Program-made: the position numbers and the translations under genes
Notes under the pieces: model-generated
Seen by the model: the letters and a program-made list of their open reading frames with translations, nothing else
Told to the model about the DNA's origin: nothing
Databases searched by the model: none
IMG/VR virus record: IMGVR_UViG_2585427681_000002
Coordinates: 1,362 to 65,361 of that record
Direction: 5' to 3' (one strand)
Source: a virus
Lineage: Duplodnaviria > Caudoviricetes
Length of the DNA stretch: 64,000 nucleotides
In this document: piece by piece, positions 3,207 through 9,751 of the stretch
Numbering within the stretch: position 1 is the first letter of the stretch
Layout of the letters: each line of letters starts with the position of its first letter

Positions 3207-3266
3207 TCGCGGCAGTTGAATAGAGGGGAGAGGGGTTACAGTAGAAAGAGTACGGATGTACTCCTG

Positions 3267-4166
3267 TCAGTGTTCGGCGCCTGGACGGGCGCAGGCGTTC
3301 TCGGCCATCACCCGACATTCGACTTTCGTCGGCCCTTGGTATTTGGCGCAGCAGGGGTGAGTGCAGGCGTTGCAACCATGTGGGTCGTCCGGCGCGGCTG
3401 GTTCTGCGCTGGCATTACGGCGATGCTCGTCGTAGATCCTTTGCGATTCTTCGTCACTCTTCAGGCAACCGCACCGGTATGGGTGGGCGGTGTAGTCGAT
3501 ATGGCACAGGCGATCCGGATAGCCGACTGGCGCGTTCGGCTCTGCGCTGTCGGTCAGCTGGGCGGTTGCTTCAGTGGCATTACGCCCGAGGCGGGCTGCC
3601 CAGTAAGTCGCGGACTTGGTGCCAACCGCAACCTCGCGGCAGATCCAGTCGGACGCTTTTCGGAATTCATCGCCCAACTTGCGCAGGAGCGCACCTTGTT
3701 CGGCCAGTCGAGCGCTCAGGCTGTCGGAAGCGTAGTCGCCCTCAGCGACCATGAGGTCCAAGCGTTTCACTTCGGCACGCAGTTCCCCGGCCTCACCAGG
3801 GGGAGCCATGGGGCCGAGAGCCACAACCGACTCGCCGATAAGCTGTGCGTCTTGCTCGGCCTGAGCCCTGTCCCACCAGATCGCCGAGCCAACGAGCCAG
3901 GCGACTGCATATCCCTGGTTCTGCCCGGCTTGTTTAGCCATGGCCTGCACGATGCCCAGCAGCCGCTCGGGGCCGATCTCGTCGGTATGGCCAAGGCAGA
4001 CGTGTTCGCCGTCCGGCTGTGTGCACTGGCAATCATCGGTGAGCTCTTCCGAGCTACCGACCCAGCCGCAGCGAGTGCATTCGACGGCATAGTAGCTGCC
4101 GCCCAGGGGCGTCTCGCCGATCACGGGCGGGATGCTGGAAGTTGTGGATCGGTTTTCTGTGGGCAT
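3267..4166 (-). CDS. Hypothetical protein with Cys-rich (CxxC) ends and central coiled coil
   Basis: CTRCGW near the N-terminus and CNAC/CAKY near the C-terminus. Confidence 0.75.
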   Translation of the reverse strand: MPTENRSTTSSIPPVIGETPLGGSYYAVECTRCGWVGSSEELTDDCQCTQPDGEHVCLGHTDEIGPERLLGIVQAMAKQAGQNQGYAVAWLVGSAIWWDRAQAEQDAQLIGESVVALGPMAPPGEAGELRAEVKRLDLMVAEGDYASDSLSARLAEQGALLRKLGDEFRKASDWICREVAVGTKSATYWAARLGRNATEATAQLTDSAEPNAPVGYPDRLCHIDYTAHPYRCGCLKSDEESQRIYDEHRRNASAEPAAPDDPHGCNACTHPCCAKYQGPTKVECRVMAENACARPGAEH

Positions 4167-4249: not shown

Positions 4250-4345
4250 ATGTACTTCCTCCAAATCCTCAAAATCTTCCTTCTTGTCGCCAGGCTGGCG
4301 AACGAACTCATCCGCCTGTTCGACCACTTCAGGCCGCTGCCTTGA
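4250..4345 (+). CDS. Putative 31-aa hydrophobic/amphipathic peptide, antisense to the operon
   Basis: MYFLQILKIFLLVARLANELIRLFDHFRPLP; GGTGAG SD; SD and ATG lie in a 16-bp hairpin at 4211-4256. Confidence 0.4.
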   Translation: MYFLQILKIFLLVARLANELIRLFDHFRPLP

Positions 4346-5252
4346 GAGCCTCGACAAACCGCTGGCCCAGCTTCGGAGGCACAGCGTTTCCGGTCATGTG
4401 CATGGTCAGGCGATGGCTTGCTGGGCGCTTTGTGTCCGTCGGGAATGTCTGGGCAGCCAGCGCCTCATCGGCGCTGAGCATGCGCATGCGGCCGCCGTTT
4501 ACCAGAGCCCACCGGTCGAGGGTTGTAATCGTTCCGATCGGGCGATTGATGTCACGCCCAGTGAGCCCGGACCCCTTGCCGTAGTACGGCATAATGAATC
4601 GATCGCCGAACCGCTGGCGGCCATTGCGAACCCTGTCGAGGGTGGCCTGGGCGCGACCAGGCTTCTCGATTTCTGACCAGCGCCCCGCCTCGAAGTCGAG
4701 GAAGCTGCTGGCCGGAACGTGCTGCTCACGCTGGAACTGCAGCATTAGCGGTGCCCGACTGCGCGTGATGACAAGGACCAGTCGAACGCGGTGTTGCGGA
4801 ATCCCGAGGTCGGCGCAGTCAACGACATGCGGGGCGACCTGATACCCCAGTGCCTGTACGGCAGCAAGCCAGGCCGGGTAGAGCGCCCAGGCAATGAACT
4901 CTTCGACGTTCTCGACTAGCCCCGCTTCGGGGCGGTGGAATTCAAGGGCTGATACCACCGCCCAGGCCGTCGAGCGCGATGCGTCGTGCCGCGGGTTGCC
5001 AGATGCCTTGCCGCGCGCTCTCGAATGGCCCTGGCAGCACGGTGAGGCCAGCAGTAAGTCGTGGGCTGGAACCTCTTCCCAGCGCGCTTGGTGTAGGTCC
5101 TGGCATACGTGATGTGTGTCAGGGTGATTGGCTGCATGCCACTTCACGGCCTCTGGCCAGTGGTTTGCTGCCCAGAGGACTTTGACACCGGCATCGCGCG
5201 CGCCGGTGCTCCATCCGCCGAGGCCGGCGAACAGGTCGATTGCTGTGGTCAT
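4329..5252 (-). CDS. C5-cytosine DNA methyltransferase
   Basis: DLFAGLGG (motif I), SPCCQG (motif IV, PC), ENV (motif VI), QHRVR, TGNAV. Confidence 0.95.
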   Translation of the reverse strand: MTTAIDLFAGLGGWSTGARDAGVKVLWAANHWPEAVKWHAANHPDTHHVCQDLHQARWEEVPAHDLLLASPCCQGHSRARGKASGNPRHDASRSTAWAVVSALEFHRPEAGLVENVEEFIAWALYPAWLAAVQALGYQVAPHVVDCADLGIPQHRVRLVLVITRSRAPLMLQFQREQHVPASSFLDFEAGRWSEIEKPGRAQATLDRVRNGRQRFGDRFIMPYYGKGSGLTGRDINRPIGTITTLDRWALVNGGRMRMLSADEALAAQTFPTDTKRPASHRLTMHMTGNAVPPKLGQRFVEALKAAA

Positions 5253-5265
5253 TGGGTGCTCCGAG

Positions 5266-6423
5266 TCAGCGTTTCGGATAGGTCTTGGTGAAGTCGCCGT
5301 TGACGACATGTCCGCGGCGCAGGATGAGGTTTGCCAGTGCGGCGCGGTCCTTCCGGCTGTGGCTGGCTTGGCTTAGGAGGCCAAAGTAGCTGTTGGCCGT
5401 CTCGCGCAGGTTGTCCGCCGGCACCGCTGCCGTTCGCTTCAGCGCCTGAGCAGCTGATCGCTTCCGCGTCGTTCTTCGCCACGGCTTGATCACGTGCCCG
5501 ACGAAGTCGACGCCGCGATCAATCGGCTGCAGGATCGTCTTCGACGGGTTGAGCCTGACTCCCAGGCCCGGCAGGAACTGCTCGATCCGCCAGAGCCACT
5601 CGTTCAACTGCTGCGGCGACTCATGCAGCAGGACGAAGTCGTCGACGTAGCGGATGTAGTGCCTGACCTTCAACTCGTGCTTGCAGAACTGATCCAGGGC
5701 GTCGAGGTAGACGTTCGCGAAGAACTGCGAGGACAGATTGCCGATCGGTAACCCCAGGTGCGCAGGCTGCGTCGTGAGCTGCTTGTGCTGCGGCACGCGA
5801 TTGAATAGATGGCGCGGGCTGCGTATCTCGTAGTCTTCGCGTGGGTCGTGCCACAGCACCTGCAGGGCGAGCTGCAGCCACCATGGTTCGGCGATCCGCT
5901 TCTGCAACTGGGCGGCGAGCACGCGCTTGTCGATCGACACGAAGAAGTTCGCGAGGTCGCACTTGAGGTAGAAGCCCGGTCGCGACCAGTTCTGGGTCTG
6001 GCTTCGAATTTTCGACTCAAGCCGCGTGGCGGCATACAGCGTGCCTCGTCCGGGGATACAAGCGCAGCTGTCCGCTATGAAGCTGCGCTCGATCGCGGGG
6101 CCAATGCGGTTGTAGAGCAGGTGGTGAACGATGCGGTCGCGGAAGTCGGCGGCCCACACCTCTCTGGCCTTTGGCCTCGTGACCACGAAACAGATCGAGC
6201 GACCAGGTCGATAGGTCCCGGCCTGGAGCTCGTCGAATAGGTCGAGGAGATTGGCCTCCATGTCGACTTCGAAGCGGCGGGCACTCGCAGTGTTCCGTTT
6301 GTGTCGCCGGCAGTCGTAGTAGGCAATGACCAGCTCCTCGAATGTGAAGCTCGCAACGGGTGAATCTGCGGACGGGGCGCACGAGACGCTCGTTGTTCTT
6401 GTCGTTGTTGTTGAGCCAGCCAT
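5266..6423 (-). CDS. DGR reverse transcriptase
   Basis: FRDRIVHH, KCDLANFF, GLPIGNLSSQFFAN (SQ motif typical of DGR RTs), YVDD, VDFVGH. The only in-frame ATG before the conserved N-terminus is at 6423, inside TR (TTG at 6429 is an alternative). Confidence 0.96.
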   Translation of the reverse strand: MAGSTTTTRTTSVSCAPSADSPVASFTFEELVIAYYDCRRHKRNTASARRFEVDMEANLLDLFDELQAGTYRPGRSICFVVTRPKAREVWAADFRDRIVHHLLYNRIGPAIERSFIADSCACIPGRGTLYAATRLESKIRSQTQNWSRPGFYLKCDLANFFVSIDKRVLAAQLQKRIAEPWWLQLALQVLWHDPREDYEIRSPRHLFNRVPQHKQLTTQPAHLGLPIGNLSSQFFANVYLDALDQFCKHELKVRHYIRYVDDFVLLHESPQQLNEWLWRIEQFLPGLGVRLNPSKTILQPIDRGVDFVGHVIKPWRRTTRKRSAAQALKRTAAVPADNLRETANSYFGLLSQASHSRKDRAALANLILRRGHVVNGDFTKTYPKR

Positions 6424-6466
6424 TCTCAAAGTCCATGTTGTAGGCGTTGTTGGCTGAGTACTGCGA
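6365..6466 (-). repeat. DGR template repeat (TR), 102 nt
   Basis: Sense reads SQYSANNAYNMDFENGWLNNNDKNNERLVRPVRR; 9 AAY codons, 31 adenines; aligns without gaps to both VRs. Confidence 0.97.
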
Positions 6467-6621
6467 CCTGTCGTGCTATCTACGTCGCCGGGACGATTGC
6501 TCAGCCCGGGAACTGCGCCAGACCTACCGGCATACGTCGGCGGTTTCTGCGGTGCGCATGGCGGTGTCCACAGGACAGCGGCACGACCAGATTCAGCGCT
6601 CAGGCGGGAGGGCCGTAACCC
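6467..6621 (-). ncRNA. Putative structured 5' spacer of the DGR RNA
   Basis: Non-coding gap between avd and TR; 6468-6476 pairs with 6581-6590 (one bulge); small internal hairpins. Confidence 0.5.
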
Positions 6622-6975
6622 TCAAGCAGCGGGCGCGGTTGCGGATTTCTTCCAGGCGTTCGCCTGGCGGCCGACGGAGGCCGTGAGCTTCATTGCAGTG
6701 GCGTGCTGCCCCTTGCTGATGAACCCCCGGGTTGTGAGGGCGCGCAGCAGGTAGTTCAGCATCCACACGCTTTCGAGCAGTTGGTTGAGGTGGGCGAGAC
6801 GATCCCGGCTCATGTTTGCCCGACCGATCAGCACGAGCACCTGAAGGCATTCGTCACGAATCTTCGAGCCAACGACCTGCTTCAGGTCTCTCGGGATGTT
6901 TCGTACCAGGTCAAGTGCAAGCCCGAGCAGTTCTTCAGCAACCTTGTGGATTTCCAAATCCGTGTGCAGCGCCAT
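6622..6975 (-). CDS. avd: DGR accessory variability determinant (Avd-like four-helix bundle)
   Basis: 117 aa, helical, C-terminal SVGRQANAWKK resembles the Avd ExGxxxGGW motif; sits between target and TR; GAGG RBS. Confidence 0.88.
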   Translation of the reverse strand: MALHTDLEIHKVAEELLGLALDLVRNIPRDLKQVVGSKIRDECLQVLVLIGRANMSRDRLAHLNQLLESVWMLNYLLRALTTRGFISKGQHATAMKLTASVGRQANAWKKSATAPAA

Positions 6976-6996
6976 CCTGGCATCCTCGAAAAGCGA

Positions 6997-7012
6997 GGGC
7001 GCCTCTGCGCCC
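6997..7012 (-). promoter_or_regulatory. GC hairpin downstream of VR1 (candidate retrohoming hairpin)
   Basis: GGGCGC-AGAG-GCGCCC, 6-bp stem with 4-nt loop, 33 nt after the end of VR1. Confidence 0.55.
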
Positions 7013-7032
7013 ATGAATGAAGAAGTGAAGTA

Positions 7033-7620
7033 TCAGAAGTATTTTCTGCGGACGGGGCGCACGAGACGCTCGTAGAGCTTGCCGCTGCTGAGGAGCCAGC
7101 CATCCTCAAAGCCCAAGTAGTAGGCGGTGCCGGCTGAGTACTGCGAACTGGTCCAGTGGATGCCCTTGGAGAAAGTCTCCGGAACTGTGCCTTCCAGGAA
7201 CGACGCCTCGCGCCGCGCCATCAGGTAGAAGTCCTTGTGCCCATCCCGCTCGAACTTTGCGCAGAACTGGGCGGCCGGGTAGGTGTTGTCTGTTTCGACC
7301 AGGTCGGCAGTGTTCGTCATGCCGTCGTGCGGGCTCATTGCGCCAGTAAACTCTTCGCCGTAGCTGCCGAACTCCAGCCTCGCCTCGGCGTCGGCGCCGG
7401 TTGGGATGATCAGGTAGTACGGCCTGTCGCCGCCTTGGAACAGCCCGCCATTCACGCCACCCTCACCGGGCCATGGCTCGCCAACGGCGGGAACGCTGTT
7501 TGCCTCGATGGCTGGCGCCGCGGCGATGGCTAGGGTTGCCAGCTTCAGCACTACACCCTTGTCCGGACTGCTGATCGTCAAGTCGCCACTGGTGTAGGTG
7601 GTCAGTTGATTCGCTTGCAT
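7033..7620 (-). CDS. DGR target protein 1 (DUF1566-like, predicted C-type-lectin fold), 195 aa
   Basis: AGGAG RBS before the ATG at 7620; C-terminal WTSSQYSA...RLVRPVRR contains VR1; no signal peptide or TM segment seen. Confidence 0.9.
   Translation of the reverse strand: MQANQLTTYTSGDLTISSPDKGVVLKLATLAIAAAPAIEANSVPAVGEPWPGEGGVNGGLFQGGDRPYYLIIPTGADAEARLEFGSYGEEFTGAMSPHDGMTNTADLVETDNTYPAAQFCAKFERDGHKDFYLMARREASFLEGTVPETFSKGIHWTSSQYSAGTAYYLGFEDGWLLSSGKLYERLVRPVRRKYF
7045..7146 (-). repeat. Variable repeat VR1
   Basis: 15 mismatches to TR over 102 nt, all at TR adenines; encodes SQYSAGTAYYLGFEDGWLLSSGKLYERLVRPVRR. Confidence 0.97.
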
Positions 7621-7741
7621 GGAGAGCTCCTGTGAGCGAGATAAGGGTGCAGGCGGCCGGCGCTTCCCGGCGTGCTTCTGGTCTGATCGCCATCCTGACG
7701 AACCCGGAATCGCCTGCGAGAGAAAGAAATGAAGGGGTGAA

Positions 7742-8302
7742 TTACTGGATAATGCGGCTGCGGACGGGGCGCACGAGACGCTCGACGTCCTTGCCGAAGC
7801 TGAAGAGCCAGCCATACTCAAAGCCCATGTAGTAGGCGCCGTTGGCTGAGTACTGCGTACTCAGGTAGTGCCAACGATCCTCGCGCAGGGTCACCAGCCC
7901 TTCGGCCTTGGCCGCCATCAGCAGCTGCCCTTCCAGGCAAGAAGGGATGTAGGCATCCAGCTCCAGCGCTTTCTTGGCGATCTCGCTGCCGCCCTCGGCC
8001 ATTGCGACGCTATTCGCGTAGCCGTCGCTGTAGCTGCTGGCGCCGGGGATCTCGACGCCATACTCACCCCAGACACCCTCGAATTCGTCGGTGGGAAGGA
8101 TCAGGGCGCGCTCCTGGCCATTGAGCCAGTAGCGCGCAGCGAAGACGCCGCCAAGCAGTGGCTGGCCCAGGGCGGGGAGGTCGGATGCGGCGATGACTTG
8201 CTGATTTGCTTGGGTCATGTGGTGCTCCTTGATGCCGCTTGGCGGCAGGTAGGCATGCAGCTGCCTGCGACGGCACTGCGTTATTTTGTGGATCCGCCTC
8301 AT
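7742..8302 (-). CDS. DGR target protein 2 (DUF1566-like, paralog of target 1); start 8302 (ATGA-coupled) or 8218 (AAGGAG RBS)
   Basis: Shares PxxGxP..GG, GxYGxExxGAxSxxDGxxN and SxQYSA motifs with target 1; C-terminal VR2. Confidence 0.9.
   Translation of the reverse strand: MRRIHKITQCRRRQLHAYLPPSGIKEHHMTQANQQVIAASDLPALGQPLLGGVFAARYWLNGQERALILPTDEFEGVWGEYGVEIPGASSYSDGYANSVAMAEGGSEIAKKALELDAYIPSCLEGQLLMAAKAEGLVTLREDRWHYLSTQYSANGAYYMGFEYGWLFSFGKDVERLVRPVRSRIIQ
7758..7857 (-). repeat. Variable repeat VR2
   Basis: 14 mismatches to TR over 100 nt, all at TR adenines; encodes QYSANGAYYMGFEYGWLFSFGKDVERLVRPVR. Confidence 0.97.
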
Positions 8303-8760: not shown

Positions 8761-8987
8761 AAGTCGTCCGCCATTTTCCGCAGCCTCGCCCGCTCGGCGG
8801 CGGTAGGACGTTGACGCTTGCGGACCAGGACCGTCTCCGGGTCGATCTTGTCGCTCCGCACCGGGAGCGGGAGAGCAGGGCAGTCACCCAGCTGGATCAT
8901 CTGCCGGCCAGATGCGAAGAAGGCAGCTTTCGCTGCCTCCAGTTGTGCCTGACGCTCAGCGCCGGCGAGGATGTAGTTGTTGGTCAT
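8757..8987 (-). CDS. Hypothetical phage protein (76 aa)
   Basis: AAGG RBS; ATG overlaps the exonuclease stop. Confidence 0.75.
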   Translation of the reverse strand: MTNNYILAGAERQAQLEAAKAAFFASGRQMIQLGDCPALPLPVRSDKIDPETVLVRKRQRPTAAERARLRKMADDL

Positions 8988-9751
8988 GCTGCCTTGCTCC
9001 TCAGCTTCGCCTCGTAGTCGTCGACGAGCAGTTTGAATTCCCATAGGTCCTGTTCCAGCGCCTCGATGTAGTCATCGTCACGCTTGAACTCGCGAAGCCA
9101 GAGCTGGCGGCCCACAGGCTTGAGAAGCGGGCAATACATCCCGATGTGCCACCACTTCCTGCCGGTGATCCACATGCAGCCCTGGACCTGGTCGATCACG
9201 TCGCTGGCATCGTTGTCGATGTGGAAGGCCCGGAGTTTGTCCGGGGCGAGGAAGCATTTGTACTCGCTGCCGCCATCGTCGTTGATGAAGCCGTCAGCGC
9301 TGGCACCGAACGCCCCGTCATCGGTCTTCACCAGTCCGACCTGCGTCACGACCAGGCCTGTCTGGATTTCGTGCTCCATCCTGGCTTCCGGTTCGAGCTC
9401 ATGGCCGCGGCGCATCTGCCAGGTTTCGAAGCCTCCATCCAAAGGCTTGCCACCGATCCGCTCTACCGCCAGCTCGAAGGCGTAGGTGAGGGCGGCGTTG
9501 GATGGCTCGCCAACCTTCTCGCCATCCAGGGCGCGCTGGACAACCTCGGCTTTCGGGGCGGCTTTGTAGCCGGCCAGTTCACGCGCCCTGGCTTCAGTGC
9601 GGCCGGCGAGGAGGGCTTCGACATAGGTCCGCTGCTGGGTGGTCAGGCCGTTCACTTTGGAGCGTGCGGTACTGAACATGCTCGCGGTGATGGTCCCGGC
9701 GCGGCCCTCAAGCCATTCCTGAGACCCTTGTACACAGTTGATGACGATCAT
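8984..9751 (-). CDS. YqaJ/lambda-exonuclease-family recombination nuclease
   Basis: QGSQEWLEGRAGTITAS, RGHELEP, GASADG, SEYKC, QVQGCMW motifs. Confidence 0.92.
   Translation of the reverse strand: MIVINCVQGSQEWLEGRAGTITASMFSTARSKVNGLTTQQRTYVEALLAGRTEARARELAGYKAAPKAEVVQRALDGEKVGEPSNAALTYAFELAVERIGGKPLDGGFETWQMRRGHELEPEARMEHEIQTGLVVTQVGLVKTDDGAFGASADGFINDDGGSEYKCFLAPDKLRAFHIDNDASDVIDQVQGCMWITGRKWWHIGMYCPLLKPVGRQLWLREFKRDDDYIEALEQDLWEFKLLVDDYEAKLRSKAA

Follow-up and report, generated by a model that had tools for sequence, protein, structure and literature searches.

A phased, VR-specific tandem-repeat array as candidate acceptor mark in a clade of phage DGRs

The two VRs of a phage DGR, located in the 64,000-nt stretch of DNA analysed here (the window), are each followed by a tandem array of short repeats. 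This array has a fixed period and phase, is found after VRs but not after TRs, and possesses cores that are conserved to an extent beyond that provided by shared ancestry. Comparison of the sequences makes it probable (roughly 0.6) that the array is the VR-specific acceptor mark of the window's clade, equivalent to the discriminating (i.e. non-GC) part of the BPP-1 IMH. A role in homing, the identity of a reader and a single-stranded step are proposed below as parts of that reading.

The DGR locus

A complete DGR is situated on the minus strand of the window, in the order distal target, proximal target, bAvd, RT-15 RNA, TR and RT. The coordinates of its features are presented in Table 1. The locus encodes both a DGR-type RT and an Avd, and every mismatch between the TR and the VRs falls at a TR adenine (14 of 14 in VR2 and 15 of 15 in VR1). 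When the VRs were compared with those of the nearest relative, locus L087, VR2 differed at 14 of 30 A sites and at none of the 70 other sites, while VR1 differed at 13 of 31 A sites and at 1 of 71 other sites. On the basis of these differences, both VRs look active.

Table 1. Features of the DGR and of the VR flanks in the window
Feature	Position	Strand	Details
VR2 array	7728..7750	minus	Unit 1 ATCCA 7750-7746, unit 2 ATTCA 7742-7738, unit 3 CTTCA 7734-7730; score 13/15 at the family register
VR2	7758..7857	minus	100-nt match to TR; 14 mismatches; 3′ end of distal target gene (8218..7742)
VR1	7046..7146	minus	15 mismatches to TR; 3′ end of proximal target gene (7620..7033)
VR1 array	7014..7039	minus	Unit 1 CTTCT 7039-7035 (eroded), unit 2 CTTCA 7030-7026, unit 3 CTTCA 7022-7018; score 10/15
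GC hairpin	6997..7012	minus	6-bp stem, loop AGAG, then TCGCTTTT; directly past the VR1 array; also terminator-like
bAvd accessory gene	6622..7014	minus	Pfam PF22296 bAvd, E=1.8e-16
RT-15 structured RNA	6464..6638	minus	Rfam RF03018, 155.8 bits, E=1.6e-38, full length
TR	6366..6466	minus	3′ flank 6365-6330 without array
DGR reverse transcriptase	5266..6423	minus	Pfam RVT_1, E=2e-16; ORF start inside TR

The RT is approximately 33% identical to Brt of the Bordetella phage. The sole in-frame starts of its ORF, ATG at 6423 and TTG at 6429, both lie within the TR. The RT-15 RNA, which is annotated also in phage Cruim01, is found upstream of the TR, between avd and TR, and a TR-RT spacer is absent (6358-6429). 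This layout is the opposite of that in BPP-1, whose priming spacer follows the TR, and cDNA priming may therefore be organised differently in the present system. The true start of bAvd is likely to be the ATG at 6975, which is preceded by AGGA; the start sequence, CCAGGATGGC, is conserved among homologs.

The neighbouring genes (a YqaJ exonuclease at 8984-9751 and a C5 methylase at 4329-5309), together with 80 IMG/VR matches, place the DGR in a temperate phage. Both target genes are situated within the early/recombination region of the prophage and not among the tail genes. Their products, of 195 and 158 aa (genes 7033-7620 and 7742-8218, respectively, minus strand), had no Pfam match at E≤0.01.

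An array of 8-nt repeats after both VRs of the window

The TR, VR1 and VR2 have an identical A-poor 3′ end, which finishes in CGCAG at 6366, 7046 and 7758, respectively, and the A-free, GC-rich segment CGTCTCGTGCGCCCCGTCCGCAG is identical in all three, as is characteristic of the BPP-1 type. A first-pass annotation of the window, made from the sequence alone, had noted a shared 14-nt motif 16 nt past CGCAG, viz. TTCACTTCTTCATT after VR1 (7029-7016) and TTCACCCCTTCATT after VR2 (7741-7728). The two copies are indeed identical at 12 of 14 positions, and both are situated past the stop codons of their target genes (TGA, 7035-7033, for VR1 and TAA, 7744-7742, for VR2). A 12/14 match at identical offset was obtained in 8 of 20,000 shuffles of the two flanks, and the degenerate 14-mer has no other occurrence within the window.

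The 14-mer represents the second and third units of an array in which an 8-nt repeat, with the consensus ATTYAnTm, occurs three times in tandem. The 16 nt that precede it had been described as unrelated between the two VRs; they agree at just 4 of 16 positions, but these 16 nt hold the stop codon and unit 1 of the array, the latter overlapping the final codons and the stop. Unit 1 of VR1 is shifted by 1 nt by the coding tail of the target protein (...RKYF*) and overlaps the stop codon, and the VR1 array contains a further half-step TTCA at 7017-7014.

The motif had also been put forward as a candidate target-recognition element, resembling the IMH/IMH* asymmetry in principle but with a different architecture. 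Its specificity for VRs, its absence from the TR and the analogy with IMH/IMH* hold, but the 14-mer taken as a unit was misparsed. The TR does read A followed by TTCACCC after CGCAG (6365-6358). This sequence is no displaced copy of the motif; it belongs to a short GAT(T/C)(C/A)A tail that is common to TR flanks and enters the RT-coding sequence. Remote targets, for which a search had been suggested, did not appear when the genome was scanned with the pattern CGTCCGCAG-N-TTCAC and with the TR as query; only the TR, VR1 and VR2 were found.

Conservation of the array among homologous DGRs

The sample comprised 160 homologous DGR loci, with RTs 61-92% identical, from Pseudomonas, many Burkholderiales, other Proteobacteria and IMG/VR contigs. 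TRs and VRs were located in these loci by their A-specific mismatches, and the flanks were anchored on the conserved CGCA. Conservation of motif and spacing in homologs had been proposed as a check on the motif. The literal 14-mer is poorly kept, being present at the VR1/VR2 spacing, within 2 mismatches, in 14% of homolog VR flanks, whereas 59% of 220 homolog VR flanks, and none of the TR flanks, possess its skeleton, TTYA-N4-TTYA, at the +17 spacing with at most 1 mismatch.

In the positional base profile of the VR flanks, ATTYA is apparent at +9-13, +17-21 and +25-29 after CGCA, with a conserved T six bases past each A, and it is this profile that defines the repeat as 8 nt, ATTYAnTm, in three copies. 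An ATTYA triplet at period 8, with a score of at least 12/15, was observed in 87% of 222 unique VR flanks, in 0 of 120 TR flanks and in 0.7% of composition-matched shuffles, figures to be read with the caveat that sequences within a clade are related and that p-values overstate independence. The same scoring at periods 5-7 and 9-11 identified no more than 4% of VR flanks. The other 13% of VR flanks score below 12. The register is that of the window (+9 after CGCA) in 124 of 194 flanks (64%) and differs in about a third.

Two further measures gave similar pictures. Exact TTYA chains in 8-nt steps of at least two units are present in 62% of VR flanks, and of at least three units in 27%, the corresponding values for shuffles being 0.7% and 0%. 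A motif-free autocorrelation has its peak at period 8, where VR flanks reach 0.45, shuffles 0.27 and TR flanks 0.22. Proximal and distal VRs carry the array, and so do remote ones (>3 kb), whatever the downstream gene. Identity between distant loci amounts to 0.50 at core positions, 0.37 in spacers and 0.26 (the random level) downstream, and this gradient argues that the cores have been kept by selection, beyond ancestry.

An in-frame stop codon occurs at +12 to +18 in 90% of VR flanks, so that units 2 and 3 of the array are non-coding. About 60% of units have TTCA as their core, and G is present at a core position in 1-2% in units 2 and 3; the sense strand of the array as a whole contains 8% G and 41% T. 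With two to three phased 7-8-nt units 3′ of the VR, and none after the TR, the locus falls in a provisional class designated 'VR-flank tandem-repeat array'. No description of such arrays was found in the searchable literature.

Members of the same DGR clade, with two tandem targets and their arrays, are present in the isolated, cultivable phages Cruim01 (L168; PP179333), LPPA56 (L169) and vB_E192a (L170), in whose records the targets and Avd are annotated mostly as hypothetical proteins. The arrays of the LPPA56-like subclade (CCCTTGAC, CACTTCAA) fit YCCTTNAR. In loci L137 (VR at 3264-3364) and L119, a VR with 0, 1 or 4 mismatches to the TR lies beside a decayed second VR; DGRs of this sort may be inactive or may have homed freshly without mutation.

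Hairpins and predicted structure of the VR flanks

As the first-pass annotation had stated, of the two VRs only VR1 is followed by a GC hairpin (GGGCGC-AGAG-GCGCCC, 7012-6997). No significant structure was predicted for the VR2 flank (z=+0.5). Among the homologs, 61% of proximal VRs and 50% of distal ones are followed by a perfect hairpin with a stem of 6 bp or more, usually beginning directly past the array; homologous hairpins begin at +31 to +41 in 61% of proximal VR flanks. The hairpin loops in the window's clade are mostly CTTG, CTCG or GCA, with AGAG at VR1. The hairpin is facultative in this clade, and its presence at just 50-61% of VRs makes the array the more constant VR-specific feature. 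The array itself is predicted to be unpaired as ssDNA.

Two other observations pertain to structure. In the VHML-like DGRs (L184-L263), the loop of the post-array hairpin is very often GATAG or GAGAG (stem...GCGATAGC...), and is more uniform than in the window's clade. In Pseudomonas loci, the block GCAGGCGATTCCGGGTTCGTCAGGAYGRCGA is conserved past the distal array (window 7690-7706, minus strand; L009; L100). The sequence TCGTC-AGGAY-GRCGA can form a 5-bp hairpin, with compensatory GCGTC...GACGC in L100, and may represent a weak second structure for VR2-type targets.

Comparison with BPP-1 and with other DGRs

The functional target of BPP-1 consists of (GC)14, a 21-bp IMH and a hairpin (PMC3240598, PMC12875486). 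The IMH has 5 mismatches to IMH* and is reported to set the direction of information transfer (PMC3240598). In the BPP-1 and BIP-1 sequences read in this study, the IMH contains three TGA cores, at spacings of 8 and 7, followed by an in-frame TAG, while IMH* contains none. Four of the five canonical IMH/IMH* mismatches strike the first two TGA cores, and the third is likewise lost from the TR. The presence of these cores in IMH and their loss in IMH* argue that the BPP-1 discriminator is itself a three-unit array with a 7-8-nt period.

The array in the window resembles the BPP-1 IMH (Doulatov 2004; Guo 2011, PMC3240598) in its location, 3′ of the A-free, GC-rich VR end and, at VR1, ahead of a GC hairpin with a 4-nt loop, in its presence at the VR and effective absence at the TR, and in its length of about 21-28 nt. 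There are also clear differences. TR/VR similarity in the window ends abruptly at CGCAG(A), and there is no near-identical IMH*, which places the array outside the definition of the BPP-1 IMH. The core in the window's clade is TTYA with a period of strictly 8, rather than TGA at spacings of 8 and 7. The BPP-1-type hairpin, a few nt past the IMH, has a 7-10 bp stem and a 4-nt GRNA loop, whereas the loops in the window's clade are not GRNA and the hairpin lies 33 nt from the VR end; it is, moreover, missing at about 40-50% of the clade's VRs, VR2 included.

Wu et al. 2018 observed that some DGRs have identical IMH and IMH*, and that recognition in those systems 'would have to extend downstream'; they found inverted repeats in only 34% of DGRs (PMC5758913). 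The GC-rich 3′ ends of the TR and VRs are likewise identical in the window, and for its clade, as a case of identical IMH and IMH*, the sequence data make the array a candidate for such a downstream signal. That survey names no downstream element (PMC5758913); the array is a concrete candidate.

Arrays of 7-8-nt period with other cores were observed after VRs but not after TRs in VHML-like and Mushuvirus-like DGRs. The VR arrays consist of three TTGA units in ACA2, two TAACTG units in VHML/VP585, three ATCTG units in BalMu-1, ATGA, ATGA and CTGA in YPCBV-1, and six units in Mushuvirus. Two further IMG/VR sets (42 and 14 unique VR flanks) possess arrays with CTG(A), TTTG or AATC cores, and in these sets the VR flanks, unlike the TR flanks, have an autocorrelation peak at 7-8 nt. 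Phased short direct repeats with a conserved core, a variable spacer and a cooperative, multimeric reader are familiar from the metboxes of MetJ, which are tandem 8-bp operators, and from plasmid iterons. The array differs from these in that its context is retrohoming and not the control of transcription or replication, and in that its recognition may be on ssDNA.

A possible role for the array in retrohoming

In the current model of retrohoming, the cDNA anneals to a single-stranded target sense strand, and the stem-loop prolongs the single-stranded state (PMC12875486). We propose that the array, located between the GC-rich, adenine-free end common to VR and TR and, where present, the GC hairpin, would flag the VR as the receiver of adenine-mutagenised cDNA, and that the TR, without an array, would stay the donor. 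The sense strand of the target would become single-stranded transiently, for example as lagging-strand template, and the G-poor array would then remain unstructured beside the GC clamp, offering three phased sites to a putative clade-specific reader. That reader would most plausibly be the RT-Avd-RNA/cDNA particle, which would position the cDNA 5′ end at the GC clamp. The hairpin, where present, would merely boost efficiency.

Under the single-stranded-target model, an array that is unstructured and phased and that adjoins the GC clamp would fit as a docking or positioning site, and the clade-specific cores argue for a reader that co-evolves with them. Not all three units can be essential, since unit 1 of VR1 is weak (score 10) and yet VR1 looks as active as VR2. 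The array score showed no correlation with the fraction of substituted A sites (rho=-0.02), a measure that saturates. Runs of complementary or same-sense sequence between the VR flanks and the RNA of RT-15 and the TR flank were, at their longest, no different from those in shuffles (6.07 vs 6.21). Two particular ideas were considered and rejected. RNA-guided recognition could have involved the conserved RT-15 linker UGAAU, which is complementary to ATTCA, but the linker variants TTAAT and TAAAT do not covary with the core. Primase CTG initiation sites are attractive for the clades with CTG cores, but are a misfit with the TTYA core here and with the Bacillus phage.

Alternative explanations

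A functionless array might have arisen as a mutational scar of repeated retrohoming, through duplications at the repair of staggered breaks or through RT slippage at the cDNA 5′ junction. The array occupies precisely the junction to which the 5′ end of the cDNA has to be attached, a 7-8-nt period like its own is typical for target-site duplications, the number of copies ranges from 2 to 8 in the VHML-like set, and no dose effect on diversification was seen. In the window's clade, however, copy number (3) and register are stable, and the unit-specific spacers are conserved between genera, the cores more so, which indicates old arrays with selection on the cores. Nor do the units match the TR flank as a template: just 24% of TRs possess TTYA, which shows no covariation with the array, and the TR-flank GATTCA was rejected as a template on these same grounds. 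In addition, the equivalent positions in BPP-1 are functionally required (PMC3240598). We consider an origin of the array as a scar to be unlikely.

An effect on translation or on the mRNA was also considered, the array serving either as a safety net of stops in all frames past the hypermutated segment or as an AU-rich intercistronic site for processing or decoupling. Three-frame stops within 36 nt are present in 31% of VR flanks, compared with 7% of shuffles; a period of 7 or 8 puts successive TGA or TAA codons in different frames; no reading frame stays open across the BPP-1 IMH; and TGA/CTGA cores dominate in other clades. These points notwithstanding, TTCA, the core of about 60% of units in the window's clade, is not a stop codon, and the low frequency of G in the cores of units 2 and 3 (1-2%) speaks against stops as well. 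Three-frame stops are absent from 69% of flanks, including both flanks in the window, and were rejected as the driver of the array, being enriched but in the minority. Processing sites, for their part, do not require an 8-nt phase that is fixed relative to the end of the VR. A translational or mRNA-level function is thus likewise improbable.

It is very unlikely that the array is an iteron-like operator, bound by a phage or host protein that regulates expression of the genes that follow it, be these avd-TR-RT or the next target. Ribbon-helix-helix operators such as the MetJ metbox typically consist of tandem 8-bp sites, and the proximal array is situated just upstream of avd. Distal and remote VRs, however, carry the same array before unrelated genes, from 0 to >60 nt from the next start codon, and the array was seen only directly behind a VR. 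A promoter for avd was also rejected, as no promoter-like site was found. As a general binding motif the array was also discounted: triple TTCA arrays number 9 in the genome and 10 in the reversed control, and within the window they are confined to the VRs.

The last alternative concerns the window alone. The VR2 flank shares the 10-mer CAGGATGGCG (7697-7688) with the avd start (6979-6970) and holds a degenerate copy of the VR1 hairpin (TCGCAGGCGA), so that target, array, hairpin and avd start were probably duplicated in tandem. The CAGGATGGCG relic past VR2 opens a 76-aa ORF (7463-7693, minus strand), which is probably no gene. Outside the 14-mer, the alignment of the VR1 and VR2 flanks is not significant (z=1.2), and this, along with the low identity of the 16 nt before the 14-mer, argues that the array has persisted through the decay of the hairpin and of the avd relic. 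It is therefore highly improbable that the 14-mers are alike through duplication ancestry alone, with no constraint: the shared 10-mer and hairpin copy agree with such ancestry, but the 14-mer was retained amid decayed surroundings, and a local event is contradicted as a sufficient explanation by the family-wide pattern.

None of these alternatives explains a conservation that is phase-locked, core-specific and confined to VRs as well as does an acceptor mark.

Implications for DGR target choice

How a DGR tells its recipient VR from its donor TR and installs the cDNA is a standing question, above all for the many systems with identical IMH and IMH* or with no hairpin (PMC5758913, PMC12875486). 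A phased array found only at VRs provides a concrete, mutable sequence feature for direct testing, and it allows the BPP-1 IMH mismatches to be read in a unified way. It is conceivable, although on balance doubtful from the sequences compared here, that phased 7-8-nt arrays with clade-specific cores (TTYA in the window's clade; TGA/CTGA, TTTG and AATC elsewhere) constitute a general DGR acceptor code. The BPP-1 IMH would then be a particular case, and the RT-Avd ribonucleoprotein would read such arrays on the sense strand in its single-stranded state. Were that so, a GC clamp together with the cognate array would be enough to turn any sequence into a DGR target, and the TR would be protected by having no array. 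The array improves the prediction of true DGR targets, remote ones included, from sequence only, and it would give design rules for retargeting non-BPP-1 DGRs as tools for diversification in vivo.
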